Shown here in pieces: positions 22,646-43,818 of a stretch of 43,958 nucleotides of DNA. The position numbers were made by a program, and so were the translations under genes. A model generated the notes under the pieces. It had not been told where the DNA came from. It searched no databases and saw only the letters and a list, made by a program, of their open reading frames with translations. Numbering within the stretch: position 1 is the stretch's first letter; each line of letters opens with the position of its first letter. The stretch comes from Clostridia bacterium (GTDB taxonomy: Bacteria > Bacillota > Clostridia > Christensenellales > UBA1242), in NCBI GenBank assembly GCA_046882085.1, contig JBKSNA010000033.1, positions 1 through 43,958 of the forward strand, given 5' to 3'.

Positions 22646-25600
22646 ATGGCTACAAGAATTGCAATAGAACCTACAAAGATAACAAATATGTCATTTAGAA
22701 GATATGACAAGACTCAAAATATTTCTTTTGAGGATTTGTTTGTACAAAAAACTGATGGGGAATTGATTTATCTAAACGATCTCCAGACTGGTGATACTGC
22801 AGACACTAAGATTAAAACTATTGATGAATTTTTTAAGAATTTTAATAAGTTGCAATATGGTGGCACTAAGCTTGTTGACATGGGGATTAAAATAGAAGAT
22901 TTATTTTATCGTACTATGGTGCATACAGATATTTCATCTAATCATACTAGTATATCCAGCTTGTCATTAACTAATGGAGCTAGTCGTACCTATAGTTTGG
23001 CACATAAAAGTGAATTAGCACCTGGCGAGAGAAGATTTGGCAATGATGTTGTATTCATTGGTAGACTCAGAGGTTATGCTCAAGATACTATTATGGAAGC
23101 TGGCGATATTTATTATATCCACCCATTGACTAAGGCGAGAATTAATTTAATCGAATTAGAGAATGTATTGAAGCCTAGTTTTAAGAATTTCACTCATGCG
23201 GTCTATATGTATGAAGACAAAGATGGTGTAAGTAGAGAAATAGAAGCCATTGATCTACGCAATGCATATACTTGTAAGTTGACTACCTATGAAGCTAAAA
23301 AAGAAAATGGAATGATTGAAACTCATACTTTTGATAAAGATGGTAATGATATTGTAGTGGGTACTAGATTTACTAATCCTAACTTTGTAGAGAAGAAAGC
23401 AATAGCAGACGATGATAAAGGTACTACGCTTATCCAAAATAAATTATTCAAGCGTAGCGCTAATGGTGAATTTGTTGGTGTGAGAGTAAAAGGTCAAGAA
23501 CATTTGATAAAAGTGAACATAACCGACTTATACTTTAAAAATGGTAATCAGATTATATCTGAGGGAACAGAGTTGTCCGCGGAAGAATTTGATACGATCA
23601 AAGGCTTAGAACTTCAAGTAAAATCAGAAGATGGTAAAATGCTCGACATCGAGCCTCTCACAATAGACAATGAAAGATATACTACCGAGAGAGTGTTGGC
23701 ATTATCACATAGTGCGGAAGATGTCATGGCGGATAATGCATATTTGAAGTTACAAAATGGTGAGATGTTCCGCGAATCAGCTGAGAATCTTCAGCCTAAG
23801 TCATATAATATCATTGCTGACACAGCAGATGCAGATGCATATTTGGTAAGATTAACGAATGGACAATTCAGAATAATAGATAAGGCATATTTTGAGAAAC
23901 AAAGATTAGCTAATAATGTATCTTTCAATCTAGATGGCGCAGTTGTTCGTATTAGTAGCGTGCATAAGTTGGGACGTACCACTGCTGCTAACGCGGAATT
24001 ATATCAAACATCGAATGCATTCGGATCTAAAGTACATGCTTGTAGAGTGATTAAGAAAGTTAGAGAATTAGGCGAAATGGCCGAATCATTTGATGCTGAG
24101 CAAGAGCAAACTGAGGGTAGAGAAGATTTCTTAGCAAGTTATAAGGCTGGCAATTATGTCTTAGATAAAGTTGAAATTTTAGATAAAGATAGCAATGTAA
24201 AACTTCAAGATGTCGTAACAAATAAAGAAGAAAAAGGTGAAAGATATATCTATACCGATACTTTTGAGACAGAAGACAATAGTCAAAAGACAGGATATTA
24301 TGCGACTTTAGATAACAAACCAGTAGAAATACAGGTAAAAGATGGCAAAATTAGTTATGCCAAGGGTGGCCCTAAGTATAATATCGGTAAAGCGATGGCA
24401 AGAGATTATAAAGTGTTAGGAACAGCGGCACTTTATTCATTGGGAATTTTCTCTACAGGTGGTCTAGCATTAGCAATAGCTGTTCCTGGTCTAGTAATCG
24501 CGGGTGGTGCCGCGATGGCTTTGGCTGCTCCTGGTATATTGATAGGGGAAACTGCTCGTGGTATAGTGAATCGTATCTCTAATGCTGTAAAGAAAAGTGC
24601 ATGGCATACAAATGTGGATCTAAAGAAATTAGATAAGAATCAAGATATTAACAACCAAACTAAGAAAGAAGTCGAAGTTGGTTTAAAACATATTAGAACT
24701 CAAACTGAACAAAAATTAGCAGAGATAGAGAATAATGCTACCTTATCAGATGATGCTAAGCAAGAAGCTAAAGAAGAATTAATGCAAAAATTAAATCTAG
24801 AGTGTGGGCTTCTTCAACAAAAAATTGCGACTATGTCTGGCTCTACTATTGAAGGCAGTGGCTTCACTATTACAGATGGTAAAGGTAATGTATCTTCATA
24901 TAATGCATATCAATGTCTAATGTTCCAAGATGCATTTAATAAGAAAGTGGATCAAAGAAAAGAAATCGATAAAAGTATCAAAGGTCTACATGAGCGTCTA
25001 ACTAAGGGGAAAACTTTACGTCGTGGACAATCTAAAACTTTAGATAAAATGATCGCTAAGTATTTCCCAGAAGATGAATTTGCTAATGACTTAGACAAAG
25101 TCGAGGCATTACAAAATAGAAGTATAGCTATCAATACTGAACTAGAGGGAATGCAGCAAAGCTTCACTAGTGGAAGATATCAAGCACCTCCAGATGCTAG
25201 ACACGCTGAGCTTTTAGATAGATCTAGAAATATGCAGGCGTATTTGATCGCTAAGATACAAGGTGTATATTTAGAAGATGGTATCAAAGTTGATGACTTT
25301 ATGTCTAGCACATTAGATCAAGCTACTCTTCAACATCATATGGATATTATTGAAGGAATCAAAAATGATATCGGTGAATTTAATTTAGAAGATGTATTAG
25401 CAATGACTCCAGCGAATGCGGAAGAATCTTCTAGAAAAGAAGCAGAAATAGAAACCGGTGCAGGTTTAGGCGCTAACACAGATCTTGAAACTAAGATAAA
25501 ACCAATAATAAATTTAGATGACGAAGAAAAGAAAGAAGATGAAAGTTCGAGTATTCTACAGATAGAAGACATAGAAGATATTAAGTCTGTATTTATGGGA

Positions 25601-28216
25601 TTATCTCCAAGTTTCAATGCTATTAAGGATAAAATGGATCCTATATGGGACGAGACATTATCTGAAATGAATGCTTTGAACGTTACTCCGGAGACTATTG
25701 ATTCAGCGATTACATACCTTAACAATCAAGATAATTTATCTGAAGATAATAGTGATTTATTAGCCAAATTACAACTTGTTCGTTTTAAATACGATGATTT
25801 TGTTAGTGATAGTACAAAATTTGTTGATGCTATTGAGAAGCAAGAAAGAATAATCAATCAGTTGAATGAAAATTCAAATATTGATCCTACTCAAATTGAA
25901 ACTGCATACAGCGAACTAGTTAGTGTGTGTGAAGAATTGGCAGAGAAACATGGTGTAGAGATTAAAATTGACGTTGCAAAGATAGAAATTTTATCAACCG
26001 TAAGACAAGCAGAAGATGCTGCAGATGCTATGAGAGCACTTACTGAGCCATCAGATGATAATTTATCTTTAGTTGACGCATTCAATATGATGAAATCTGG
26101 CGCTATAGATGAGAGTTTCATCGATATGTATCCTCATCATATAAGAGACATTGGTGAGAGATGTTCTAGATATAAATATTTCGAGAAATTGAAAGAAAAA
26201 GGATCTATTAATATTACAATCAACGGTGAAAAAATCACATTAACTCGAGATGAAGCTGAACAAATGCAAGATAATTTTGCTAAGATTAATTCTGTACTTA
26301 AAGGCGAAAAAGAAGAAAAAACTTATACTGAGTTAGATATTGCATTGATTAGAACTTTGATTGCTAAAATGAATGACTTGGAGAATATTCACAAAAAGTT
26401 CGCAGGACCAGATGAAGAACTATTAGGTAATGAAGAAGATTTGGCTACAGATCTTAGAGACTTCTACGATGCGAATCATGCAATATTTGATAAAGCGTTA
26501 TCTAGTGAGAGTTTGTCAGATTTGCTAAAAGAAGATATCAAGCAAGCAATCGAATATTACAATCATTATGGTGATTATTATCCAATAGGTTATAAACCTG
26601 AGAACAATGATGAAACTAAACCTCAAAATGAAGATATAGATTCAAATAATAATCTGTCTATCAACCCTAACAATGTTAACAAAAATGATGGCAACAACGT
26701 TGTACCTAATTTAGTCGTAAAGCCTGAGGATACACTAGATGATCAAGTAGACGATGATACAAATAGTCATAATGATAGACAGCCAAGTGTATATACTAAC
26801 AATACACATGATGAAAACGACAATAGTGTTGATCCTAATAAAGTAAATGAGATTCTAGAAGAATCAGATGAAGCGAATAAAGATAAAAATGATAAAGATG
26901 ATTCAACTGACCTTAATGCGAATGAAAAAATCAGTAGATTATCAAAAATTAAAGCTAAATTATCAAGTGTATTAGAAAGCATAAAGAACAAGAAAGAAGA
27001 ACACAAAGCTCAAAAACAAGAAAAGAAAAATAGCAAGAAGGATAAAGAAAATCTTTTAGACGAAGAATCAAAACTTAAACTAGGTGAGAAAATTCATCAA
27101 TTAGGATCAAAGTTAAAAAATGCAGGGTCAAAAACAATATCTGCAGTCAAAACTGCTGGAGTAACTGCAGGCAATGCTATTAAGAATGCTGGAATAACTG
27201 CAGGTAAAGGAATCAAGACTGCAGGTGGTGCAGTAGTTGGCGCGGTAAAAGATGCAGTATCAAAATTAAAAGAAAAACTTAAAAAAGAACCAGAATATAG
27301 TTTTGATGAACGTGTGGCGATATTTAAAGATATGGTAATATTACCTTTTGATCCTAAAAAGTTTAGTGAAAAGTATAAAGACAAAAAAGGCTTGATAGAA
27401 TATGCAAAAAATAATATTAAGTTAACTGAATTAAAAGGATTTAAAACTCTAAAGATTACTAAATCTGGTGAAAAAGAATCTATATCGTTTACTGCAGAGG
27501 CTGTAAATGTTTGTATCGATGCATTGCATCAGTTAGATGAATATGAGAAATCTCTGAAAGAAGAAAAGAAGAAAAAGAAAGGTTTTGATAAATCAAAAAA
27601 AGAGACTTCTCGTACTGATAAGAAAGGCAATAAGAAGGATAAAAAGAGACAACAACAAGATGCTGAGAGATCTAGCAGTTCTAATGATGCAAATGATAAT
27701 AATAATACTGACTCAGAAATGGAGATTGTATTTGATCCTAATAAAATATTTAGCGGAGAATTTGGTGATATAGATCTTTCTAAGCCGGTATATGATCCGA
27801 AAATTCGTGAATACATGCAAAGTCTTGGTCTTAATCCAGATAATCCATGGGAAAGTGTTTCTTCAAATGGTGTTAATATACCAAATCCTTTTGCAGAAGC
27901 TGGACAAAATCAAACAAGCTCTATAATTGGAAATGGTGAAATTTATAGTGGTCTTTTAGATTGGATAAATGAAGATCAAGCTAATAGAGGTCCACTGCTA
28001 GCGCTTAATAAGGAAGAATTAGAGAAAAAGGGTCTAGATGCTAATAAAATAGAAGAAATAATAAACTTTAAGCAGTCTGTTAAAGAATTATTAGAAGCAA
28101 AAGAAAAGGCTCAAGCGTCAGCTGGAAAGCAAAGTAAGAAAATATTAGATGATTTAGATAATCAAAATATCAATACAAGTACAAACAATAATAAACCTGA
28201 TGATTTGGGTTTATAG
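22646..28216 (+). CDS. giant (1856 aa) protein with a central TM hairpin, long coiled-coil/low-complexity C-terminal region
   Basis: A globular region of about 590 aa, then two Gly/Ala-rich hydrophobic helices (nt 24413-24546). After that come charged helical sequence, N/D/K-rich tracts and a K-x-AG-x-TAG repeat block (nt 27113-27262). No family recognised. Confidence 0.8.
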   Translation: MATRIAIEPTKITNMSFRRYDKTQNISFEDLFVQKTDGELIYLNDLQTGDTADTKIKTIDEFFKNFNKLQYGGTKLVDMGIKIEDLFYRTMVHTDISSNHTSISSLSLTNGASRTYSLAHKSELAPGERRFGNDVVFIGRLRGYAQDTIMEAGDIYYIHPLTKARINLIELENVLKPSFKNFTHAVYMYEDKDGVSREIEAIDLRNAYTCKLTTYEAKKENGMIETHTFDKDGNDIVVGTRFTNPNFVEKKAIADDDKGTTLIQNKLFKRSANGEFVGVRVKGQEHLIKVNITDLYFKNGNQIISEGTELSAEEFDTIKGLELQVKSEDGKMLDIEPLTIDNERYTTERVLALSHSAEDVMADNAYLKLQNGEMFRESAENLQPKSYNIIADTADADAYLVRLTNGQFRIIDKAYFEKQRLANNVSFNLDGAVVRISSVHKLGRTTAANAELYQTSNAFGSKVHACRVIKKVRELGEMAESFDAEQEQTEGREDFLASYKAGNYVLDKVEILDKDSNVKLQDVVTNKEEKGERYIYTDTFETEDNSQKTGYYATLDNKPVEIQVKDGKISYAKGGPKYNIGKAMARDYKVLGTAALYSLGIFSTGGLALAIAVPGLVIAGGAAMALAAPGILIGETARGIVNRISNAVKKSAWHTNVDLKKLDKNQDINNQTKKEVEVGLKHIRTQTEQKLAEIENNATLSDDAKQEAKEELMQKLNLECGLLQQKIATMSGSTIEGSGFTITDGKGNVSSYNAYQCLMFQDAFNKKVDQRKEIDKSIKGLHERLTKGKTLRRGQSKTLDKMIAKYFPEDEFANDLDKVEALQNRSIAINTELEGMQQSFTSGRYQAPPDARHAELLDRSRNMQAYLIAKIQGVYLEDGIKVDDFMSSTLDQATLQHHMDIIEGIKNDIGEFNLEDVLAMTPANAEESSRKEAEIETGAGLGANTDLETKIKPIINLDDEEKKEDESSSILQIEDIEDIKSVFMGLSPSFNAIKDKMDPIWDETLSEMNALNVTPETIDSAITYLNNQDNLSEDNSDLLAKLQLVRFKYDDFVSDSTKFVDAIEKQERIINQLNENSNIDPTQIETAYSELVSVCEELAEKHGVEIKIDVAKIEILSTVRQAEDAADAMRALTEPSDDNLSLVDAFNMMKSGAIDESFIDMYPHHIRDIGERCSRYKYFEKLKEKGSINITINGEKITLTRDEAEQMQDNFAKINSVLKGEKEEKTYTELDIALIRTLIAKMNDLENIHKKFAGPDEELLGNEEDLATDLRDFYDANHAIFDKALSSESLSDLLKEDIKQAIEYYNHYGDYYPIGYKPENNDETKPQNEDIDSNNNLSINPNNVNKNDGNNVVPNLVVKPEDTLDDQVDDDTNSHNDRQPSVYTNNTHDENDNSVDPNKVNEILEESDEANKDKNDKDDSTDLNANEKISRLSKIKAKLSSVLESIKNKKEEHKAQKQEKKNSKKDKENLLDEESKLKLGEKIHQLGSKLKNAGSKTISAVKTAGVTAGNAIKNAGITAGKGIKTAGGAVVGAVKDAVSKLKEKLKKEPEYSFDERVAIFKDMVILPFDPKKFSEKYKDKKGLIEYAKNNIKLTELKGFKTLKITKSGEKESISFTAEAVNVCIDALHQLDEYEKSLKEEKKKKKGFDKSKKETSRTDKKGNKKDKKRQQQDAERSSSSNDANDNNNTDSEMEIVFDPNKIFSGEFGDIDLSKPVYDPKIREYMQSLGLNPDNPWESVSSNGVNIPNPFAEAGQNQTSSIIGNGEIYSGLLDWINEDQANRGPLLALNKEELEKKGLDANKIEEIINFKQSVKELLEAKEKAQASAGKQSKKILDDLDNQNINTSTNNNKPDDLGL

Positions 28217-28254: not shown

Positions 28255-28259
28255 AATAT

Positions 28260-28420
28260 TAATCCTATAAGCAAAGTGGCGATTTGCTTGGAGATATTGA
28301 AAAGATATCCGCTCCGCTTGGCGTAATAAGCAATTAAGGTGGGAATTATCCAATTAGGGTGGAACCGCGGTATTGATTTATCGTCCCTTGTCTATTATTA
28401 GGCAAGGGATTTTTCTTTTG
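28260..28420 (+). promoter_or_regulatory. glycine T-box riboswitch (short glyQS type) with terminator
   Basis: T-box sequence AATTAGGGTGGAACCGCGG at 28352-28370; its UGGA would pair with a U73-CCA tRNA end as in tRNA-Gly. Candidate GGC specifier at 28320-28322. Terminator TCCCTTGTC/GGCAAGGGA plus T-run at 28384-28420. Confidence 0.8.
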
Positions 28421-28547: not shown

Positions 28548-29912
28548 ATGGGAAATTTTGACAAAGTCGCAAATTTATGTAAAAATCGTGGATTGATATT
28601 CCCTGGTAGTGAGATCTATGATGGTCTAGCTAATACTTGGGACTATGGTCCAGTGGGCGTGGAGCTCAAGAACAATATCAAGCGTGCATGGTGGAAGAAA
28701 TTCGTGCAAGAATCTCCATCATCATATGGTGTAGATGCTGATATCTTCATGAATAGTAGAGTATGGGACGCGAGTGGTCATACTGCTAGTTTTAGTGATC
28801 CTAAGATGGATTGTAAGGCATGTAAGACTCGTCATCGTGCAGATAATCTAATCGAAGATCATGCTAAAGGAAAGGTGAATCCAGACCTAATGTCTAACGA
28901 AGAGATGGAGAAATATATTGAAGAGAATCATGTGAATTGTCCTAAATGTGGTAGACATGATTGGACTAATATTCGTAACTTCAATCTAATGTTCTCTACA
29001 TCTCGTGGTGTAACAGATGAGAATCAAAATTTAATTTATCTTCGTCCAGAGACCGCACAAGGTGAATTCGTAAACTTCCTAAATGTTCAACGAAGCATGA
29101 GAGCAAAAGTGCCATTTGGTATCGCTCAAGTGGGTAAGGCATTCAGAAATGAAGTAACACCAGGAAACTTCACATTTAGAACTATCGAGTTTGAACAAAT
29201 GGAGCATCAATGGTTCTGCAAGCCAGACTCTAGTCTAGACTTCTATGCAGAATACAAGGCTAAAGCGATGGATTTCTTGTTGTCTCTAGGATTCAAGGCT
29301 GACCATCTTCGCTATCATGATCATGATAAGTTGGCACACTACGCTAAGGCTGCATGTGATATTCAATATTTATATCCTATCGGTTGGCAAGAACTCAATG
29401 GTATTCACCATCGTGGAGATTGGGACTTATCTCGACACCAAGAGTATAGCGGTAAGTCTATGTTATACCTAGATCCATATACTAATGAGAAATATATTCC
29501 TAATGTAGTAGAGTATTCTATCGGTGCGGATAGATTGACTCTTGCTGTATTATGCGAAGCATATGATGAAGAAACCTTAGCAGATGGAGATACTCGTGTA
29601 GTAATGCACTTCCACCCAGCGATCGCGCCATACAAAGTAGCAATTCTTCCTTTGCAAAAGAATCTAAGCGAAAAAGCCAACGAAGTTTATGCTAAACTAG
29701 CTAAGCATTTCATGTGTACATACGATGAAGCTGGTTCTATTGGTAAGAGATACCGTCGTCAAGACGAAATCGGTACTCCTATGTGCGTAACTATTGACTT
29801 CGATACATTAGAGAACAACACTGTAACAATTCGTGATCGTGATACTATGGAACAAATCCGTATAAGTATTGATGAATTAGTAGATTATGTTGAGAAAAAA
29901 GTAGAATATTAA
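28548..29912 (+). CDS. glyQS: glycine--tRNA ligase (alpha2 type)
   Basis: 454 aa. N-terminus ...CKNRGLIFPGSEIYDGLANTWDYGPVGVELKNNIKRAWW. RBS AAAGGAGA. T-box upstream. Confidence 0.95.
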   Translation: MGNFDKVANLCKNRGLIFPGSEIYDGLANTWDYGPVGVELKNNIKRAWWKKFVQESPSSYGVDADIFMNSRVWDASGHTASFSDPKMDCKACKTRHRADNLIEDHAKGKVNPDLMSNEEMEKYIEENHVNCPKCGRHDWTNIRNFNLMFSTSRGVTDENQNLIYLRPETAQGEFVNFLNVQRSMRAKVPFGIAQVGKAFRNEVTPGNFTFRTIEFEQMEHQWFCKPDSSLDFYAEYKAKAMDFLLSLGFKADHLRYHDHDKLAHYAKAACDIQYLYPIGWQELNGIHHRGDWDLSRHQEYSGKSMLYLDPYTNEKYIPNVVEYSIGADRLTLAVLCEAYDEETLADGDTRVVMHFHPAIAPYKVAILPLQKNLSEKANEVYAKLAKHFMCTYDEAGSIGKRYRRQDEIGTPMCVTIDFDTLENNTVTIRDRDTMEQIRISIDELVDYVEKKVEY

Positions 29913-32507: not shown

Positions 32508-32822
32508 ATGGATGTAGTATGTAGAAAGTATAGCTGTGTATACAACGAAAAAGCAAAATGTAGTCGAAAAAATCTCCATGTAAATGATCATGCTGATTGT
32601 TTTGATATTGAGATTGATAATGAGAAATTAGTAGAAGATGTATCTCGAGATATGTTTTCGCACGAGCCTGACGTTGCACCTTATCATCATTGCAAAAATA
32701 TGAATATAGAGTGCAATAGTGAAGATTGTATATTCAATAGATCTCATGAATGTTTTTCTAATGGCATATTCGTAGGCAGTGAAGAGATTAGCGCACCATG
32801 CAATAGTTTCGTAGTTAGATAA
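32508..32822 (+). CDS. DUF1540-like cysteine-rich protein (two repeats)
   Basis: VVCRKYSCVYNEKAKCSRKNLHV..ADCFD and IECNSEDCIFNRSHECFSNGIFV...APCNSF match the DUF1540 C-x-C-x-N-x-C pattern found in spore-forming Firmicutes. Confidence 0.6.
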   Translation: MDVVCRKYSCVYNEKAKCSRKNLHVNDHADCFDIEIDNEKLVEDVSRDMFSHEPDVAPYHHCKNMNIECNSEDCIFNRSHECFSNGIFVGSEEISAPCNSFVVR

Positions 32823-32845
32823 TTTTGATTTTTTTGACGATATCC

Positions 32846-32874
32846 TTGACATTGCTATTTCAGTGTGATAGAAT
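32846..32874 (+). promoter_or_regulatory. promoter of the leuS leader
   Basis: TTGACA 32846-32851, 17-nt spacer ending in TGa, TAGAAT 32869-32874. ATG of the leader ORF lies 6 nt downstream. Confidence 0.65.
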
Positions 32875-32880
32875 AAAGCC

Positions 32881-32919
32881 ATGAAGATAAATAGTTTGGC
32901 ATTACTATTATTGAGGTAA
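32881..32919 (+). CDS. 12-codon Leu-rich leader peptide MKINSLALLLLR
   Basis: ATG AAG ATA AAT AGT TTG GCA TTA CTA TTA TTG AGG TAA. Five of the 12 codons are Leu and four are consecutive. The stop codon abuts hairpin 32919-32936. Confidence 0.6.
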   Translation: MKINSLALLLLR

Positions 32920-32963
32920 GGTGCCCATTGGCACCTCTCTTTTGGTTGTGCCCAAGGTTGATA

Positions 32964-32995
32964 ATTGACGGCATAACCGCTGTCAATTTTTTGTT
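32964..32995 (+). terminator. intrinsic terminator (attenuator) immediately upstream of the leuS RBS
   Basis: 9-bp stem ATTGACGGC/GCTGTCAAT (one G-U pair), loop ATAACC, then TTTTTTGTTT. RBS AAGGAG 33002-33007 and ATG 33013 follow. Confidence 0.7.
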
Positions 32996-33012
32996 TATCA
33001 CAAGGAGAAATT

Positions 33013-35421
33013 ATGAGAGAATACAATCATCAAGAAATAGAAGCAAAGTGGCAAAAGTATTGGGACGAACATGAGACGTTCAAGACTGATATAAGAGATT
33101 TTTCTCGTCCTAAGTTTTATGCACTAGATATGTTCCCATATCCATCAGGATCAGGACTACACGTAGGACACCCAGAAGGATACACTGCTACTGACATAGT
33201 GAGCAGAATGAAGAGAATGCAGGGATATAATGTATTGCACCCAATGGGATTTGACTCATTCGGTTTGCCAGCAGAGCAATTCGCAATAGAGACTGGTAAT
33301 CACCCTGATGCATTTACTCAGAAGAATATAGCATATTTTACCAATCAATTAAAAAATATTGGTCTATCTTTTGATTGGGACAGAGATATTCAGACTAGTG
33401 ATCCTAAATATTACAAGTGGACTCAATGGATATTTAAGCAACTATACAAAGATGGTTTGGCTAGATGTGTAGAGATGCCTGTGAATTGGTGCGAAGGTCT
33501 TGGCTGTGTATTGGCTAATGATGAAATCATTGATGGCAAGAGTGAACGTGGTGGATTCCCTGTTGTAAAGAAGAATATGAAACAATGGGTTATTGATATT
33601 CCTAAGTATGCAGACAAACTTCTTAGCGGTTTAGATGAGATTGATTGGCCAGAGTCTACTAAGTTGATGCAGAAGAATTGGATAGGTAAGTCTACCGGTG
33701 TAGAAGTAGATTTCAATATCGTAGGTGGCGGACAATTCTCAATATATACTACTTGTATAGAGACAATTTATGGTATTACTTTCATGGTGGTAGCGCCAGA
33801 GAGTAAGTTGGTAGACGATCTTCGTCCGCGTATTAAGAATTGGGAAGAAGTAGAGAAATATAGAATAGAAACTGCAAAACTCAGCGATATGGAACGTACC
33901 GAACTAAATAAAGGTAAGACTGGTGTTCGCCTTGATGGTATATATGCGATTAACCCTGTGAATGGTAAAGAAGTACCTGTATTTATTGGAGATTTCGTAC
34001 TTGCTAGTTATGGTACAGGTGCAGTAATGGCAGTACCTAGTCATGATCAGAGAGACTTCGAGTATGCTATCGCACATAATATCCCAATGATTCAAGTAAT
34101 AGATGGTAGAGATGTATCTCAATCTGCATTCGAGAAGCAAGATTATCTAGGTAAAGGTTGTAAGCTTATCAACAGTGAAGAGTTCACAGGTCTCACAGTA
34201 GAAGAAGCGAAAGCTGCTATCACTAAGAAAGTGGAAGAAATGGGCGTGGGTCGCAAGAAAGACAATTATCGTATTAGAGAGTGGATATTTGCTCGTCAAC
34301 GTTATTGGGGTGAGCCAATTCCTGTAGTACATTTTGATGATGGAAGCACTGAGGCACTAGAAGATAGCGAGCTTCCACTTGTGTTGCCTGTATTGGAAGA
34401 TTATAAACCAGCAACAGATGGTAGTAGTCCGCTCGCAAAAGCGACTGATTGGGTGAATGTATCAGTAGATGGTAAACTAGGCAAGAGAGAGACTAGTACT
34501 ATGCCAGGTAGTGCTGGATCTAGCTGGTATTTCTTGAGATATATAGATCCACACAATGACGATATATTCGCTGATTATGAATTGATGAAACACTGGTTGC
34601 CAGTCGACTTGTATGTTGGCGGACCAGAGCATGCTGTAGGACATCTATTGTATTCTCGTATGTGGAATAATTACCTATTTGACAAAGGATTAGTGCCGGT
34701 AAAAGAACCATTCAAGAAACTAGTTCACCCTGGTATGATTCTTGGTGCTAATGGTATCAAGATGGGTAAGCGTTATCCGGAATATGTAGTGGATCCTAAT
34801 GATATTGTTAGAGATTTCGGTGCAGATACATTAAGATTGTATGAAATGTTCATGGGACCACTTGAAGTATCAAAACCATGGGATCATAATGGTGTCATCG
34901 GTGCTAAGAAATTCTTGGATAGAGTATATAGAATTTATCAAGAGAAGAAGATCGTAGATAGCGATAATAAAGAATTAGAAAAAATTTATCACCAGACACT
35001 TAAGAAAGTAACTAATGACTACGAGACGCTTAATTTCAATACTGCAATATCTCAAATGATGATATTCATCAATGCGGTAAGTAAAGTAGAAGTATTCCCT
35101 AGAGAATATGCAGAAGGATTCGTAAAGATCTTGAATCCAATCTGTCCATTCATGACAGAAGAATTGTGGCAAGAACTTGGTCATAACAATACAATCGCAT
35201 ACGAAGTATGGCCAAAATATGATGAATCGAAGATGATAGAAGATGTAATAGAGATTCCTATCCAAGTGAATGGCAAACTTCGTGCGAAGATTAGTGTCAA
35301 TATTGATGCTAGCGAAGATGAGATCAAGTCTAAAGCTCTTAGCGAAGTTAAGCAATATGTAGAGAATGGATATAAGAAGATAGTATATATTCCAGGTAGA
35401 ATATTCAATATTGTGGTATAA
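33013..35421 (+). CDS. leuS: leucine--tRNA ligase
   Basis: 802 aa. HVGH (HIGH) motif in PYPSGSGLHVGHPEGY, KMGKR (KMSKS variant), CP1 editing region. Confidence 0.95.
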   Translation: MREYNHQEIEAKWQKYWDEHETFKTDIRDFSRPKFYALDMFPYPSGSGLHVGHPEGYTATDIVSRMKRMQGYNVLHPMGFDSFGLPAEQFAIETGNHPDAFTQKNIAYFTNQLKNIGLSFDWDRDIQTSDPKYYKWTQWIFKQLYKDGLARCVEMPVNWCEGLGCVLANDEIIDGKSERGGFPVVKKNMKQWVIDIPKYADKLLSGLDEIDWPESTKLMQKNWIGKSTGVEVDFNIVGGGQFSIYTTCIETIYGITFMVVAPESKLVDDLRPRIKNWEEVEKYRIETAKLSDMERTELNKGKTGVRLDGIYAINPVNGKEVPVFIGDFVLASYGTGAVMAVPSHDQRDFEYAIAHNIPMIQVIDGRDVSQSAFEKQDYLGKGCKLINSEEFTGLTVEEAKAAITKKVEEMGVGRKKDNYRIREWIFARQRYWGEPIPVVHFDDGSTEALEDSELPLVLPVLEDYKPATDGSSPLAKATDWVNVSVDGKLGKRETSTMPGSAGSSWYFLRYIDPHNDDIFADYELMKHWLPVDLYVGGPEHAVGHLLYSRMWNNYLFDKGLVPVKEPFKKLVHPGMILGANGIKMGKRYPEYVVDPNDIVRDFGADTLRLYEMFMGPLEVSKPWDHNGVIGAKKFLDRVYRIYQEKKIVDSDNKELEKIYHQTLKKVTNDYETLNFNTAISQMMIFINAVSKVEVFPREYAEGFVKILNPICPFMTEELWQELGHNNTIAYEVWPKYDESKMIEDVIEIPIQVNGKLRAKISVNIDASEDEIKSKALSEVKQYVENGYKKIVYIPGRIFNIVV

Positions 35422-35422
35422 T

Positions 35423-35923
35423 ATGCATTTTAATTATAGACCTCTATTGAAGACAGATGTTGAGTATATTAATTCGTTTCATTCTGATATGGTAGACAAA
35501 GATAAAAATAATAGCATCACTAAATATATTACTTCAAAAGGAATTTTGTTGGGAGATGTGTTTAAAGAATTATGTTTGAATGAAGATTCTTGTACTGATG
35601 CTAGAATTGTGTTAGATGACCATGATTTTGTTGGTGCTGTAATGTATAATGTAGACATAGTGGGGAATAAGAAGGTTTTGAATTTAGAAGCTATAATAGT
35701 ACATCCGCAACTGACAGGCAAGGGTATAGGTAGAAAAATACTTCATGATGTAATATCTTATTCTGCTGATATATTTGGCATAGAAATTCATACTATTCAG
35801 GCAATTGTCGAGAAAGATAATATGCCTAGTCAAAAAATCTTTGATATAAATAAATTTAGTAAAAAAGATCGTAACAAAGATAATTCAGATAAATATATAT
35901 CATATAGTCTAGATATTGAATAG
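35423..35923 (+). CDS. GNAT family N-acetyltransferase
   Basis: Motif A in IIVHPQLTGKGIGRKILHDVI. Start set at ATG 35423, 1 nt after the leuS stop. Confidence 0.7.
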   Translation: MHFNYRPLLKTDVEYINSFHSDMVDKDKNNSITKYITSKGILLGDVFKELCLNEDSCTDARIVLDDHDFVGAVMYNVDIVGNKKVLNLEAIIVHPQLTGKGIGRKILHDVISYSADIFGIEIHTIQAIVEKDNMPSQKIFDINKFSKKDRNKDNSDKYISYSLDIE

Positions 35924-35933
35924 GTAAATAAAG

Positions 35934-35962
35934 AAAGTCGGTTTAACTAAACCGACTTTTTC
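35934..35962 (+). terminator. rho-independent terminator
   Basis: AAAGTCGGTTTA/TAAACCGACTTT stem plus a T-run. Confidence 0.8.
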
Positions 35963-35987
35963 TAATCTATTAACCAATATAGGTGAA

Positions 35988-37121
35988 ATGGTGGCGAAGA
36001 AACCTTCTGTAAGTGCTAGAACTTTTGAATGTAATATGAGAAATTTTAGATTACATATTCAGCCACATATTGGAAATATGAAAGTTTATGAGGTGGACAC
36101 GTTTGTAATTCAAAAGTTGGTTAACAAATTAGCTGAAGAAGGTTTGAGTGTTGATGTGATTAAGAAAAAGAAACATCTAATTAATCAATTCTTTGAGTAT
36201 GCAAAAGATAATAAATGGGTGGTAGACAATCCAACAACAAAATTGAAGATAAGATCAAAAGATAGAACGAACACAGAAGCAAAAGAAAGATACAAAGCAT
36301 TGAATCCTGAAGAAAGAGCAATATTTTTGGAAGCATTAAATAAAGACGAAGCAAACTTTATTAAACCACTTTGCATTTTGCTTATGTTTGCAGGTTTAAG
36401 AATTGGAGAGGCTTGTGCTTTGAAATGGAAAGATGTAAATTTCGAAAATAAAACATTAAAGGTTGAAAGAGGAATAACTCAGGTTGCAAAGTTTGATGAG
36501 AAAGGAAAGGTGGTTGAAAGAGTAACTGTTGTGGGAGCCACAAAAACAGCGTGTTCTGTGCGAGAAATACCAATCACAGACATTGTGGTGGAAACCTTAA
36601 AAACATGGCGTAAAAAGCAGGATTTCAAGCAAAAAATGGACCCTAGCATCAAAGTTAATCTTATAGATTCAGATGCTTTCATTTTTGCGAACGATGATGG
36701 TAGTGTTAGGACATATTCAGGGTGTAGAAAGATTTTCGGTAGATTTATTAATCGTAACAGGTTGCAAAAATACAACATTCACTTTCATGGATTAAGGCAC
36801 ACCTTTTCAAATATGCTTTTTGAAATGAACGAGAATCCAAAAGTTATTCAACAACTGCTAGGGCATCGTGATGTGAAAACGACAATCACAGTGTACAATT
36901 CTGTTGATAGTGAGTATGTAAGACAAGCAACTGACAAATTGAATGATAAAATTAAAAATGAGGAAATATTTGCTCAGAATAAACAGATGGAAGATGAAAA
37001 GCAAGAACAAAAGAAAAGTGTTATTTCAGAAATGAGCGATGAAGAGTTTGATGATATGTTTTTAGATTTATTGGAAGAACGCAAACGAAGAAAACAAAAA
37101 CAAGATGATATGGAGATGTGA
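35988..37121 (+). CDS. tyrosine site-specific recombinase / integrase with a short N-terminus and acidic C-terminal tail
   Basis: Catalytic residues in GLRIGEACALKWKDV (R), HGLRHTF (HxxR) and LGHRDVKTTITVY (H, Y). The core-binding domain starts near residue 10, so an arm-binding domain seems absent. Confidence 0.85.
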   Translation: MVAKKPSVSARTFECNMRNFRLHIQPHIGNMKVYEVDTFVIQKLVNKLAEEGLSVDVIKKKKHLINQFFEYAKDNKWVVDNPTTKLKIRSKDRTNTEAKERYKALNPEERAIFLEALNKDEANFIKPLCILLMFAGLRIGEACALKWKDVNFENKTLKVERGITQVAKFDEKGKVVERVTVVGATKTACSVREIPITDIVVETLKTWRKKQDFKQKMDPSIKVNLIDSDAFIFANDDGSVRTYSGCRKIFGRFINRNRLQKYNIHFHGLRHTFSNMLFEMNENPKVIQQLLGHRDVKTTITVYNSVDSEYVRQATDKLNDKIKNEEIFAQNKQMEDEKQEQKKSVISEMSDEEFDDMFLDLLEERKRRKQKQDDMEM

Positions 37122-41346: not shown

Positions 41347-43818
41347 ATGGCTGTTAAGAAAAGTGAGTTATACAGCAAATTATGGGCGAGTTGTGATGAG
41401 TTAAGGGGCGGAATGGACGCTTCTCAATATAAAGACTATGTTTTAACATTACTATTTGTAAAATATGTTAGTGATAAATTTAAAGGACAACCATTTGCAG
41501 ATATTGAGATTCCAGAAGGTGCAAGTTTTGATGATATGGTAGCTCTGAAAAGAGATGCACACCTTGGCGAAGAAATGGATAAGATTATTGCTAAACTAGC
41601 AGAATCTAACAATTTAAGAAATGTTATTGATAATGCAAAATTTAACGATGAAGAAAAAATGGGCAAGGGAGAAGAAAAAAGAGATAGATTATCTAATCTT
41701 ATCGATATTTTTGATAATCCAGATTTAAATTTTAAAGACAATAGAACTGATGGTGACGATATCATTGGCGATGCTTATGAATACCTTATGAAGAACTTTG
41801 CTAAAGACTCTGGTAAAAGCAAAGGGCAATTCTACACCCCTGCAGAAGTATCTAGAATTTTAGCAAAAATTATTGGAATAAAAAATGCTAAAAGTTCTGA
41901 TACGCTATATGACTGTGCATGTGGTAGTGGATCGCTACTTATCAAAGCAGCAAGTGAATGTGATAATAAGGTTACTATATATGGACAAGAAAAAGATGGT
42001 GCAACAGCTGGTATGGCAAAGATGAATATGGTGTTGCATAATCTTTCTACTGCAACAATTCATAAAGATAATACAATGGCAGCACCTTTCTTTAAAGAGC
42101 AAGATAGCAAAGGAAATAATATTGATAATAAACTTAAACAATTTAATTATATTGTTGCAAATCCACCTTTTTCTCTTAAGAATTGGAAGAATGGTGTTGA
42201 TACTGAAAAATATGGCATATATCAAGGTTATAGTACCCCACCAGAAAAATGTGGTGACTATGCTTGGCTTTTACATTGTATAAAATCTTTGAAACAAACA
42301 GGTACAGGTGCCATTATCCTTCCACATGGTGTTTTATTTAGAGGAAATGCAGAAGCAGAAATCAGAAAAGAAATTATTGATAGAGGTTTAATTAAGGCAA
42401 TAATTGGTTTGCCAGCAAATTTATTCTTTGGAACTGGAATTCCTGCTTGTATTATAGTATTTGACAAAAAAGATGCTAATGAAAGAAAGGGCATTTTTAT
42501 GATAGATGCAAGTAAAGGATTTGTTAAAGATGGTCCAAAAAACAAATTAAGAGAACAAGACATTAAGAAGATTGTAGATGCTTATGAAGGACAATTAAAT
42601 CTCCCTAAATTTTCTAGATTTGTTGAAAATGAAGAAATTAAAGTTAAAAACGAGTACAACTTAAATATCCCAAGATATATTGATACATCTGAAGTTGAAG
42701 ATTTACAAAGTATTGAAGCTCATTTACATGGAGGAATCCCTATGGAAGATGTGGACTCTCTTAATAAATATTGGGAACAATTCTCTAATCTAAAAGAAAA
42801 GTTGTTTTCAAAATTAAGGGATGGTTTTTACAAATTAAATATCGATAAAGATGAAGTAAGAAAAACAATTTATAATGATGAACAATTTGCTTCTTATTCT
42901 AAAAAAGTTGATAAAGCATTTTCTAACTGGAAAGCTTTTGTTGATGAAAAATTAAGGGCAATGAATAAGAATGTTAAACCGAAAGAATTAATAATTGAAC
43001 TTTCCAACAAGTTAATTTCAGAATTTGAAACGGTTGAACTTATTGATAAATATGATGTTTATGAAGTTTTACTTGAGTATTGGCAAGAAGTAATGCTTGA
43101 CGATACTTCTTTGATTTGTTCGGATAATGGTTGGAATGAAGCAAAAGAAACAGAATTAGAATTTGCAAAACCTAAAAAGGCAAAAGAAGGCGAAGAAAAG
43201 AAACCTAAAAAAGAACCTAAAGTAACTGGCTGGCATGGTAAAATTATTAGCAGAGAGCTTCTTGCTAGTGTTTATTTTAGTGATGCAGTTTTAGCAATAG
43301 AAACTGCAAATAATGCCGTTGCAGAACAAGAAGGATTATTACAATCATTGATAGAAGAAAATAGTGATGATGATTCTATTTTTAATGAGTGTATGAACGA
43401 CAAAAATGAAGTTACAACAAAATTAGTTGAAACTAAATTTAAGGACCTTAAAAAACTTAATCAAATTGATGATGACTATAATCTTTTGAAACAATACATC
43501 GACATCAATGATGTTATTAAACAATTAAACAAAGATTTAAAAACTTTAAATGCTGGATTAGAAGAAGATTTAAAAAAGAAATACCCTACTTTAACTATTG
43601 AAGAAATTAAGGATATCCTTATCAATAAAAAATGGTTGAAAGTTGTTTATGAAGGTATAGATAACCTTTACACAACAATTTCTCATAACATTGCTAATCG
43701 AATTGTGGAATTAGTTGTAAGATATGAAAACACTCTTTCAGAAATAGAAAACAATGTTAATTCTTACGAAGCAAAAGTAAAAGAACATCTTAAAAGGATG
43801 GGATTTGAGTTATGTTAA
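41347..43818 (+). CDS. hsdM: type I restriction-modification methyltransferase subunit HsdM with a ~370-aa C-terminal extension
   Basis: HsdM_N pattern (LWASCDELRGGMDASQYKDYVLTLLFVKY), FYTP, DCACGSGSLL (motif I), NPPF (motif IV). The catalytic core ends near residue 450 of 823. RBS AGGAGG. Confidence 0.9.
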   Translation: MAVKKSELYSKLWASCDELRGGMDASQYKDYVLTLLFVKYVSDKFKGQPFADIEIPEGASFDDMVALKRDAHLGEEMDKIIAKLAESNNLRNVIDNAKFNDEEKMGKGEEKRDRLSNLIDIFDNPDLNFKDNRTDGDDIIGDAYEYLMKNFAKDSGKSKGQFYTPAEVSRILAKIIGIKNAKSSDTLYDCACGSGSLLIKAASECDNKVTIYGQEKDGATAGMAKMNMVLHNLSTATIHKDNTMAAPFFKEQDSKGNNIDNKLKQFNYIVANPPFSLKNWKNGVDTEKYGIYQGYSTPPEKCGDYAWLLHCIKSLKQTGTGAIILPHGVLFRGNAEAEIRKEIIDRGLIKAIIGLPANLFFGTGIPACIIVFDKKDANERKGIFMIDASKGFVKDGPKNKLREQDIKKIVDAYEGQLNLPKFSRFVENEEIKVKNEYNLNIPRYIDTSEVEDLQSIEAHLHGGIPMEDVDSLNKYWEQFSNLKEKLFSKLRDGFYKLNIDKDEVRKTIYNDEQFASYSKKVDKAFSNWKAFVDEKLRAMNKNVKPKELIIELSNKLISEFETVELIDKYDVYEVLLEYWQEVMLDDTSLICSDNGWNEAKETELEFAKPKKAKEGEEKKPKKEPKVTGWHGKIISRELLASVYFSDAVLAIETANNAVAEQEGLLQSLIEENSDDDSIFNECMNDKNEVTTKLVETKFKDLKKLNQIDDDYNLLKQYIDINDVIKQLNKDLKTLNAGLEEDLKKKYPTLTIEEIKDILINKKWLKVVYEGIDNLYTTISHNIANRIVELVVRYENTLSEIENNVNSYEAKVKEHLKRMGFELC

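Follow-up and report, generated by a model that had tools for sequence, protein, structure and literature searches.

How is leuS controlled in a Clostridia genome where the gene appears to lack the regulator expected for it? Aminoacyl-tRNA synthetase genes of Firmicutes are textbook T-box territory. The window analysed here (the whole stretch of DNA, 43,958 nt, from a Clostridia bacterium) contains leuS preceded by a short leader, and the initial annotation, made from the sequence alone, had reported that no T-box precedes the gene, proposing Rfam as the check.

T-box elements at leuS and glyQS

An Rfam search of the whole window at the gathering threshold returned no T-box and no other family. 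The absence of a T-box before leuS held even at E <= 10, at which positions 32700–33100 yielded none and the plus-strand leader matched no family, RF00512 and RF01743 included. The remark that glyQS in the same window is under T-box control was also borne out, by a T-box-like element at 28258–28391 that contains AAUUAGGGUGGAACCGCG and a terminator and lies ahead of the glycine–tRNA ligase gene. This element scored 47 bits (E 2.9e-9) against an Rfam cut-off of 93 bits, and is considered a weak but genuine T-box. In the distant leuS loci L021–L040, Rfam gave nine T-box hits, of which eight lie no more than about 600 nt ahead of leuS, and in loci L001–L020 it found a T-box in none. Since the outgroup leuS loci carry T-boxes and L001–L020 do not, the attenuator proposed below would occupy the T-box niche.

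A family of leuS leaders

Fourteen further leaders homologous to that of the window were found, and all 15 lie immediately ahead of leuS in uncultured Christensenellales-like Clostridia. A genome scan of 80 leuS loci contributed nine of these (window included), contigs with close LeuS homologues contributed four, and a metagenome pattern scan yielded only the remaining two. A covariance model (R1) gave scores of 89–110 bits to four leaders left out of its building. When R1 was used to search the window and 614 kb of related loci, no second copy of the element was detected; in this search and in the metagenome pattern scan, the element was found only ahead of leuS. About half of the close relatives carry the attenuator leader and some have neither attenuator nor T-box. 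The close relatives L001, L002, L087 and L039 are without any such leader at leuS.

Promoter and predicted leaderless start

The promoter, leader ORF and regulated gene are arranged as follows, all on the plus strand:
32846–32851, plus strand, −35 hexamer TTGACA (sequence and promoter scan)
32866–32874, plus strand, extended −10 box TGaTAGAAT, with a 17-nt spacer from the −35 hexamer (sequence)
32881–32919, plus strand, leader ORF MKINSLALLLLR and its stop codon (32917–32919), predicted to be leaderless and without a Shine-Dalgarno (SD) sequence
33002–33007, plus strand, leuS Shine-Dalgarno sequence AAGGAG (read from the sequence)
33013–35421, plus strand, leuS, leucine–tRNA ligase of 802 aa, the regulated gene (TIGR00396, 977 bits; Pfam domains)

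In the element under study, 132 bases precede leuS, from the leader start at 32881 to the leuS start at 33013. A minus-strand ORF of 132 aa (32628–33026), which overlaps a plus-strand gene at 32508–32822, is probably spurious. Direct reading of the sequence confirmed the near-consensus promoter and the ATG at 32881, 6 nt further on, that had been annotated. In a promoter scan of 5.5 kb, this promoter ranked second among the matches (11/12 plus TG). Across the family, the scan identified TTGACA or TTGACT with a 17–18-nt spacer in 13/15 leaders; in L017 and L010, for which it picked other hexamers, reading by eye gave TTGACA and TTGACT respectively, both with a 17-nt spacer. The gap between the −10 box and the ATG was 6 nt in 12/15 leaders by scan, and in 14/15 if L017 and L010 are assigned TAATAT for this box. 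L004 has a gap of 8 nt. The ATG itself is invariant across the 15-sequence alignment.

Because the ATG is located only 6 nt past the −10 box, transcription is predicted to start at its A (32881), which would leave the leader transcript leaderless and an SD sequence impossible. Leaderless starts had also been claimed elsewhere in the window, but these were not confirmed; a start-site survey of the window indicated that most of its genes start after ordinary SD sequences. Efficient leaderless initiation on the leader is thus an assumption, as the ordinary genes of the window rely on SD sequences. The leader family suggests a regulatory use of leaderless initiation within a lineage of Clostridia in which SD sequences serve the ordinary genes.

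The leader ORF and its leucine codons

The Leu-rich leader ORF had been annotated correctly, with its ATG at 32881 and its stop at 32917–32919. It reads ATG AAG ATA AAT AGT TTG GCA TTA CTA TTA TTG AGG TAA, with Leu codons at 32896–98 and 32902–13. Five of its 12 codons specify Leu (42%, compared with 7.5% Leu in the proteins of the window). The ORF is 10–12 codons long among the 15 leaders, and both TAA and TGA are used as stops. Within the ORF span of these leaders, the predicted frame contains no stop (0/163 codons), whereas the two other frames contain 30/148 and 10/148. Peptide codons 2–5 vary freely and the C-terminal residue is not conserved either.

Comparison of the leuS upstream regions of relatives had been proposed as a check on the Leu run. 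The L-A-L-L-L core is kept in 13/15 leaders. The remaining two, L010 (ILALPVC) and L018 (LLALF), have eroded runs that retain two or three Leu in a leader that is otherwise conserved. In the 13 sequences, the core and the extra fifth Leu codon of the subgroup of the window display only synonymous changes (TTG/TTA, TTA/TTG/CTA and CTA/TTA/CTC). One of these changes, CTA to CTC in L017, loses a base pair of the helix P1 described below and retains Leu. Most of these synonymous changes are transitions, which G-U wobble would tolerate as well, and coding and structural constraints are therefore confounded. The invariant ATG 6 nt past the −10 box, the open frame and the synonymous changes are indirect indications that the leader ORF may be translated.

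Hairpins, terminator and pivot

The 135-nt leader has a minimum free energy (MFE) of −41.5 kcal/mol, compared with −28.1 +/- 3.5 kcal/mol for shuffled sequences (z = −3.9; 0/200 shuffles as good). Five structural elements were assigned, again on the plus strand:
32898–32907, plus strand, region 1, GGCAUUACUA, within the GCA-TTA-CTA (Ala-Leu-Leu) codons; one strand of the anti-antiterminator P1, whose other strand is region 2
32919–32936, plus strand, hairpin P2, AGGUGCC-CAUU-GGCACCU, whose first base is also the final one of the stop codon (folds)
32943–32952, plus strand, region 2, the pivot UGGUUGUGCC; alternative partners are region 1, the P2 3′ arm and region 3
32963–32992, plus strand, intrinsic terminator with a 10-bp stem (32963–72/32979–88), loop AUAACC and T-run 32987–92 (folds and terminator scan)
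32970–32978, plus strand, region 3, GGCAUAACC, comprising the top 3 bp of the terminator 5′ arm and the entire loop; forms a 9-bp antiterminator with 32944–52

P1 was recovered in the MFE folds and in the RNAalifold consensus, with 95.6% of cells paired in the 15 sequences. Its duplex ranges from −7.5 to −12.2 kcal/mol across the leaders and is equalled by 0–11 of 200 shuffles. A hairpin at the position of P2 is present in 15/15 leaders (−9 to −12.5 kcal/mol), and in the leaders compared the in-frame stop is always just before it. The apical pairs of P2 vary by subgroup (GAC/GUC versus GAU/AUC; CUA/UAG versus CGA/UCG). Its loops, which include CAUU, CUUC, GGUC, AAU and GAU among others, are not conserved, and hence no ligand or protein site is obvious there. 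P2 was flagged as terminator-like by the scan and was considered as a first terminator, a role that was rejected. Most relatives lack a U-run directly after the hairpin, and for this reason P2 is read as a structural or pause element. In the window it is followed by CUCUUUU and may also act as an RNA polymerase pause hairpin.

Region 2 could also pair with the P2 3′ arm (GGCAC, 32930–34). Within region 2, TTGTGC is invariant; the two preceding bases are GG in 14/15 leaders and GC in L017. The UGGU of this region is not conserved, being CGGU in L010 and UGCU in L017. The terminator, written from 32963 to 32988 as AATTGACGGC-ATAACC-GCTGTCAATT, has one G-T pair in its stem. It is conserved in 15/15 leaders, although the stem sequence differs in L018. 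A hairpin and a terminator ahead of the leuS ribosome binding site had thus been recognized properly, with the correction that the terminator stem is 10 bp rather than 9 and that the terminator spans 32963–92.

Pairing tests of the predicted antiterminator switch

The initial annotation paired two copies of TTGGCA with GTGCCCAA. These elements exist, with three coordinates to be moved by one base (TTGGCA at 32896–901 and 32928–33; GTGCCCAA at 32948–55). The model was incomplete in that it contained no antiterminator. It has no helix that overlaps the terminator, and its pairings therefore cannot cause read-through alone. The missing helix is provided by the pivot GGUUGUGCC (32944–52), which pairs alternatively with the Leu-codon region at 32898–907 or with region 3 at 32970–78. 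The latter helix overlaps the top and loop of the terminator, and the two structures are mutually exclusive.

The antiterminator segment folds at −12.8 kcal/mol. The region 2/region 3 duplex is present at −12.0 to −15.5 kcal/mol in 15/15 leaders, with 0–3 of 200 shuffles equalling it, and 91% of antiterminator cells are paired in the 15 leaders as against 27–61% with a slid partner. One compensatory antiterminator pair was found, C-G in the window and L017 and U-A in the other 13. The leader of L083, whose LeuS is 96% identical, differs from that of the window by precisely this C-G to U-A double change. In L017, the change of GG to GC in region 2 is coupled with AACC to GGGU in region 3. Column-wise covariation of the antiterminator and P1 across the 15 leaders was not significant, and most measures were not above shuffle controls. 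The weakness of this statistic is attributed to leader sequences that are too similar and to misalignment of L017 and L018 around region 3.

Simulated ribosome masks switched most members from terminator to antiterminator and back to terminator, the effect being weak in the subgroup of the window, and prefix folds of the leader reproduced the three predicted states. Replacement of the 5′ part by shuffled sequence lowered the unmasked terminator probability in 15/15 leaders. In the window it fell from 0.96 to 0.61, the drop being smallest in the subgroup of the window and L003. Under a stalled-ribosome mask at equilibrium, the antiterminator probability did not exceed 0.42 in the window or 0.08 in L083 and L084, and in these three leaders the terminator was thermodynamically favoured in every simulated state. 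Since equilibrium favours the terminator even under this mask, the switch in the subgroup of the window would have to be kinetic. In transcripts cut before the 3′ arm of the terminator, the antiterminator won in most states and members, a result of equilibrium folding that cannot separate the states. The pairing of the P2 3′ arm with region 2 was clearly above chance in the L007/L004/L081/L088 group. In the window, this duplex was no better than chance (51/200 shuffles equalled it).

Proposed mechanism

The leader is probably a ribosome-mediated, leucine-responsive transcription attenuator of leuS. The initial annotation had already favoured attenuation of the trp/leu type instead of a T-box, and this is supported by the 15 leaders, which keep the ATG, the open frame, the Leu-rich core and the terminator. 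The elements, their conservation and their alternative pairings are seen directly in the leaders; leaderless translation, timing and response to leucine are predicted from them. Expression of leuS would be tuned to the supply of charged tRNA-Leu by attenuation at the leader peptide. A 70S ribosome would initiate on the leaderless 5′-AUG and translate the 12-codon ORF with its five Leu codons, and region 2 (32943–52) would be the single deciding segment. With no ribosome on the leader, or once the ribosome has gone, region 1 would pair with region 2 around P2 and leave region 3 free. The terminator at 32963–92 would then form and transcription would end before leuS.

During leucine starvation, the ribosome would stall with its A site on a Leu codon, covering region 1 while P2 is still folded. 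The free region 2 could then capture region 3 (32970–78) once it is made. This pairing would deprive the terminator of its top and loop, and RNA polymerase would enter leuS. On reaching the stop codon, the ribosome would in many family members melt the P2 5′ arm, and the released 3′ arm (GGCAC) would capture region 2 and restore termination. Region 2 lies beyond the reach of a ribosome positioned there, and termination in the leucine-replete state would thus need either fast ribosome release or this P2 relay.

Alternative explanations

An untranslated RNA switch, in which the helices answer LeuRS, uncharged tRNA-Leu, another protein or small molecule, or polymerase pausing, and the ORF is a structural by-product, is unlikely, though it has more in its favour than any other rival. 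It would account for the better conservation of regions 1, 2 and 3 than of the peptide N-terminus, for Leu-codon changes that are mostly wobble-compatible, and for the reduced Leu runs in L010 and L018. SD-led translation as the norm of the window fits it as well. It leaves unexplained why the ATG is invariant and coincides with the predicted start, why its frame contains no stop (0/163 codons, compared with 30 and 10 stops in the other two) and why an in-frame stop always falls just before P2, and no Rfam family, T-box included, matches the leader. The joint change of UGGU to UGCU and of its region-3 partner in L017 also favours intramolecular pairing over binding of a tRNA 3′ end. The same segment bears on another reading, in which the element is a T-box, degenerate or reduced in size, that responds to uncharged tRNA-Leu. 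It lies where T-boxes of Firmicute synthetase genes are normally found, it contains Leu codons, and the ACCA terminus of tRNA-Leu would find a match in the UGGU of region 2. The probability of this reading is nevertheless negligible: the leader has no match at E <= 10, in a search that finds the glyQS T-box and eight leuS T-boxes in relatives; at about 110 nt it is without stem I, AGGGUGGNACCGCG box or bulged antiterminator; and the UGGU varies in L010 (CGGU) and L017 (UGCU).

A constitutive leaky terminator or insulator, which would set a fixed low leuS level or block upstream read-through with no leucine sensing, is slightly less probable than the untranslated switch. In the window, L083 and L084, the terminator has the thermodynamic advantage whichever state is simulated, and L001, L002, L087 and L039 manage without the leader. 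A plain terminator would have no use for a conserved 9-bp segment, 18 nt upstream, that is complementary to its loop, nor for a second complement inside a Leu-rich ORF. The conservation of the loop (AUAACC/AUGACC) is explained by its pairing with region 2. It is less probable still that the terminated transcript of about 110 nt, or the 12-aa hydrophobic peptide, acts in trans beside or instead of cis control. Promoter and terminator do form a self-contained unit, and rnTrpL/peTrpL of Sinorhizobium offers a precedent (PMC7298713). However, peptide residues 2–5 and the C-terminal residue are not conserved, the element was found only ahead of leuS, and no target is known.

Comparison with known attenuators

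Attenuation of a synthetase gene is known from E. coli pheST, where the leader peptide pheM has an SD-led start and ribosomes stall at the cognate codons. Leu leader families include the enterobacterial leu leader (RF00512) and the Lactococcus leu/phe leader (RF01743). The leuS leader resembles pheST in having a synthetase gene as target, a short leader ORF, stalling at cognate codons (here predicted) and a downstream terminator, and differs in amino acid, phylum, sequence and the SD-led start of pheM. pheST was cited as a gamma-proteobacterial example of synthetase attenuation in a 2005 survey, according to which no Firmicute synthetase gene was known under classical attenuation (PMC1262725). 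Among the papers searched, no later exception to that statement was found.

Leu-rich leader attenuators have been described for ilv-leu of S. aureus and L. monocytogenes (PMC6123439), and the mechanism is thus already present in Firmicutes. Together with RF00512 and RF01743, these share Leu-codon stalling and terminator/antiterminator alternatives with the leuS leader, in which both roles are predicted. In contrast, they control biosynthesis genes rather than a synthetase and are not leaderless as far as described. Leaderless polycysteine short ORFs act as attenuators in mycobacteria according to a preprint (bioRxiv 10.1101/834739). As described there, they likewise consist of a leaderless 5′-AUG short ORF rich in codons of one amino acid, but they are from Actinobacteria, sense cysteine and act on operon genes.

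The closest parallel in target and layout is the leuS attenuator of Streptomyces with leader peptide LeuL2 MRAVRLLLSEPR, which was predicted by Seliverstov et al. 2005 (PMC1262725). Its transcript was mapped as leaderless in S. lividans TK24 (PMC8079986). Both systems have the same gene, leuS, a 12-codon leaderless ORF with a mid-ORF Leu run, hairpins and a U-run terminator, and the same logic has been proposed for both. Unlike the leader described here, LeuL2, compared via its published peptide only, is from high-GC Actinobacteria. In the Clostridia leaders, region 3 is the terminator top and loop and not the whole arm (except in L018), and an extra hairpin, P2, lies between regions 1 and 2. 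Given phylum and GC content, homology is unlikely and the two attenuators are probably convergent.

The predicted attenuator would share with a leuS T-box (RF00230) its position, the tRNA-Leu charging input and terminator read-through as output. It differs in that the sensor would be a translating ribosome and not direct tRNA binding, and the leader is half as long and without stem I, specifier loop or T-box sequence. In this family, one mode of regulation would have taken the place of another at leuS, with input and output unchanged. A leaderless Leu peptide before Streptomyces leuS, and attenuators on pheST and on Firmicute ilv-leu operons, were already known; what this family adds is its sequence, a synthetase gene of Firmicutes as the target and the apparent replacement of a T-box. 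On balance, the leaders may well constitute an undescribed RNA family in uncultured gut Clostridia (Christensenellales-like), a leaderless Leu leader-peptide attenuator that took over the T-box role at leuS and whose pivot GGUUGUGCY chooses among three GGCAY partners (Leu codons, P2 3′ arm and terminator top). If true, this would be the first Firmicutes aminoacyl-tRNA synthetase gene under classical ribosome-mediated attenuation.

In practical terms, the element is missed by Rfam and misleads gene callers on the start of LeuS. The N-terminus that they assign to the protein runs up to 28 residues into the leader.

Organization of the leuS leader

In the window, the gene for leucine--tRNA ligase (leuS; TIGR00396, 977 bits) is preceded by a short leader that is likely to be a leucine-responsive, ribosome-mediated attenuator of leuS. 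Its elements are as follows.

32846-32851, plus strand: -35 box TTGACA, read from the sequence
to 32874, plus strand: extended -10 box TGaTAGAAT, after a 17-nt spacer
32881, plus strand: leader ATG, 6 nt past the -10 box
32881-32919, plus strand: leader ORF, ATG AAG ATA AAT AGT TTG GCA TTA CTA TTA TTG AGG TAA, encoding MKINSLALLLLR; stop at 32917-32919
32919-32936, plus strand: GC-rich hairpin (P2)
32963-32988, plus strand: terminator with a 10-bp stem; T-run at 32987-32992
33002-33007, plus strand: leuS SD
33013, plus strand: leuS ATG

The promoter, ATG, Leu-rich ORF, hairpin and terminator of the initial annotation were all present on re-reading the sequence; three sub-coordinates needed lowering by one base, and the stem of the terminator had been put at 9 bp, with the rest of the layout in agreement. 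Its reading as leader-peptide attenuation is supported, and is completed here by an antiterminator (32944-32952 with 32970-32978). The main uncertainties concern leaderless translation in this organism, a kinetic switch in the window's subgroup and the restoration of termination in plentiful leucine. The leader promoter ranks second among promoter matches in 5.5 kb; of five terminator-like sites in that stretch, the leader contains two. Its fold is more stable than those of dinucleotide shuffles (z = -3.9).

A leader family found upstream of leuS

Scanning LeuS relatives at one genome per species gave 80 loci, mainly MAGs labelled uncultured Clostridia, Christensenella or 'Candidatus Onthoplasma' (a Christensenellales genus). 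Reading of upstream regions revealed homologous leaders in eight of these (L003, L004, L005, L007, L010, L013, L017 and L018). A conserved-core pattern scan of metagenomes added two, each before leuS, and contigs of close LeuS homologues added four (L083, L084, L085 and L088; LeuS of L083 and L084 is 96% and 87% identical to that of the window). The last four are independent of R1, a covariance model trained on the first eleven leaders, and score 89-110 bits with it. No other copies were found by R1 in 614 kb of related DNA and the rest of the window. All 15 distinct copies lie directly 5' of leuS, with varying upstream neighbours.

The leuS gene also adjoins a Cys-rich ORF (104 aa, 32508-32822, plus strand, without an SD), for which a faint DUF1540 match was obtained in a relative only. 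Such an ORF stands beside leuS in L001, L002, L005, L017, L039, L083, L084 and L087, with or without the leader. The leader-less loci L090 (about 370-600) and L008 (about 2240-2500) have leuS upstream regions of 150-230 nt. Neither matched R1, and that of L008 had no Rfam match; these regions may hold yet another regulatory element.

The leader ORF

TTGACA or TTGACT was found by promoter scan in 13 of 15 leaders, and a 6-nt gap between the -10 box and ATG in 12. L017 and L010 have the same geometry once TAATAT is taken, by eye, as the -10 box, which brings the gap to 14 of 15; the one exception is L004, with 8 nt. The 6-nt gap places the A of the ATG at the usual transcription start position, and an SD is impossible for lack of room. 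L004 carries a second ATG 4 nt 5' in another frame (2349-2359, AAAATGTATG; identical in L086). Were transcription to begin there, the AUG at the 5' end would start another frame, one poor in Leu.

The leader ATG is invariant. No stop occurs in 163 codons in frame, against 30 and 10 in the other two frames, and the ORF ends in TAA or TGA after 10-12 codons, always just before P2.

Leader peptides of the window and related leuS loci
Window and L083: MKINSLALLLLR
L084: MKINSLALLLLG
L003: MLNKLLALLL
L085: MWNKLLALLL
L004 and L081: MIKKELALLL
L007: MIIRQLALLL
L088: MKNKFLALLLQ
L005: MKIKALALLLR
L013: MKINALALLLR
L082: MNKQTLALLLR
L017: MIIKTLALLLW
L010: MNKANILALPVC
L018: MIKSNLLALF

The peptides differ at residues 2-5 and at the last position. 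Comparison of the Leu run among relatives, as initially suggested, showed an L-A-L-L-L core in 13 of 15 leaders but not in L010 and L018; nucleotide changes within it are all synonymous, as are those in the extra fifth Leu codon of the window's subgroup. Leu makes up 7.5% of residues in the window's proteins. Most core changes are transitions tolerable by G-U pairing in P1 (the region 1-region 2 helix described below), which leaves coding and structural constraints entangled; the exception, CTA>CTC in L017, breaks a P1 pair and retains Leu.

Seven LeuS proteins (P0040, P0067, P0073, P0076, P0077, P0080 and P0099) are called too long, at 825-830 aa. In L085 (1456-1585), where the leader spans 1456-1564, the start was annotated at 1501, within the leader, in place of the conserved one at 1585; the attenuator thus causes systematic start-site misannotation.

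Alternative structures and the proposed switch

Unconstrained folds of family members share one architecture. Region 1 (GGCAU.ACUA, 32898-32907, within the Ala-Leu-Leu codons) pairs with region 2 (UGGU.UGUGCC, 32943-32952), enclosing P2, and the terminator comes next. Judged by compensatory changes specific to subgroups, P2 is a real hairpin; with the following U-rich tract it may pause RNA polymerase. The pairing scheme of the initial annotation contained no helix competing with the terminator. Region 2 (GGUUGUGCC, 32944-32952) can also form 9 bp with GGCAUAACC (region 3, 32970-32978), the top three pairs of the terminator 5' arm plus the whole loop, and this antiterminator pairing accounts for conservation of the loop. 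It is present in all 15 leaders, where the segment folds at -9.2 to -16.1 kcal/mol; the duplex itself has -12.0 to -15.5 kcal/mol, which 0-3 of 200 shuffled versions of region 2 equal. Its pairing across the model-based alignment reaches 91%, versus 27-61% with the partner slid. At one pair the window and L017 have C-G, and the remaining 13 leaders, L083 (the window's closest relative) among them, have U-A. In L017, GGUU to GCUU occurs together with AACC to GGGU. L018 has a different terminator, yet its region 2 matches that terminator's 5' arm too. Covariation statistics fell short of significance, the sequences being too alike.

Ribosome positions were simulated by holding the 5' part single-stranded to a leading edge 8-12 nt past the first base of the A site. 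In most members the ribosome-free RNA formed the terminator, placing a Leu codon in the A site gave the antiterminator, and placing the stop codon there brought the terminator back in full or in part. The terminator returns because the ribosome melts the P2 5' arm and the freed 3' arm (GGCAC, kept in 15 of 15) pairs with region 2. This relay exceeds chance in the L007, L004, L081 and L088 group but not in the window (51 of 200 shuffles as good). Thermodynamics favours the terminator in every state in the window, L083 and L084. In transcripts ending before the terminator's 3' arm, the antiterminator prevails in most states and members. From these equilibrium folds, the decision must be kinetic: the partner holding region 2 as region 3 emerges would decide the outcome. 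Kinetic choice of partner is an assumption of the classical attenuation model.

T-boxes and the origin of the leader

The initial annotation saw no T-box before leuS, and Rfam agrees: at gathering thresholds tRNA was the window's sole match, and at E <= 10 the stretch 32700-33100 gave merely chance-level snoRNA/sRNA matches. The glyQS T-box that it noted elsewhere was recovered in the same permissive search at 28258-28415 (plus strand; match 28258-28391; 47 bits, E 2.9e-9). This short, glyQS-type element, 5' of glycine--tRNA ligase (28548-29912; NF003211, 643 bits), combines a canonical AAUUAGGGUGGAACCGCG box with a terminator. Its score is below the Rfam gathering score of 93 bits, and a standard gathering-threshold run overlooks it. 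T-boxes are thus in use in this organism, with leuS as an exception.

No T-box was detected by Rfam in the 20 closest leuS loci; the next 20 gave nine matches. Two are immediately 5' of leuS (L030 and L033), six precede a small ORF before leuS (L021, L022, L025, L028, L029 and L040) and the ninth is on the 3' side of leuS in L022. In those six loci (about 1900-2500) the T-box is 400-600 nt 5' of leuS and the small ORF is hydrophobic, ending just before leuS, which places leuS second in a unit governed by the T-box.

In a rough neighbour-joining LeuS tree, leader-bearing lineages are interspersed with lineages in which a promoter and short UTR are all that is present, L001, L002 and L087 among them; these three retain the same upstream gene. 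The simplest reading of this one gene tree would be a single origin in the clade ancestor, replacing a T-box, then several losses.

Comparison with known attenuators

Ribosome-mediated attenuation is a well-known mechanism class, with E. coli pheST as its textbook example at a synthetase operon. The closest known case is the Streptomyces leuS attenuator: a 2005 study predicted classical attenuators at this gene (PMC1262725), and RNA-seq of S. lividans later revealed a 12-aa peptide, MRAVRLLLSEPR, that is leaderless and has a terminator after it (PMC8079986). Among Firmicutes, ilv-leu operons of S. aureus and Listeria are under Leu-rich attenuators (PMC6123439), and His-leader attenuators were predicted in some (PMC9413887). 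Leaderless Cys-rich ORFs function as attenuators in mycobacteria, according to a preprint (bioRxiv 10.1101/834739). In 2005, classical attenuation was stated to be known for no Firmicute synthetase gene (PMC1262725); no later report was found in an incomplete coverage of the literature. The leader matches no Rfam family and is taken as a new sequence family within the known attenuator class, probably of convergent origin. It would represent a neat regulatory replacement and leaderless sensing in Clostridia, and no new principle.

Other features of the window

Two giant ORFs (1513-12009, 3498 aa; 22646-28216, 1856 aa; both plus strand) yielded no Pfam domain match at E <= 1e-5. Within 35411-37121 (plus strand), a GNAT acetyltransferase gene overlaps the 3' end of leuS and is followed by a phage-type integrase (35988-37121, plus strand) and, farther on, the type I restriction-modification methylase HsdM (41347-43818, plus strand). 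This group of genes may be an integrated element downstream of leuS.
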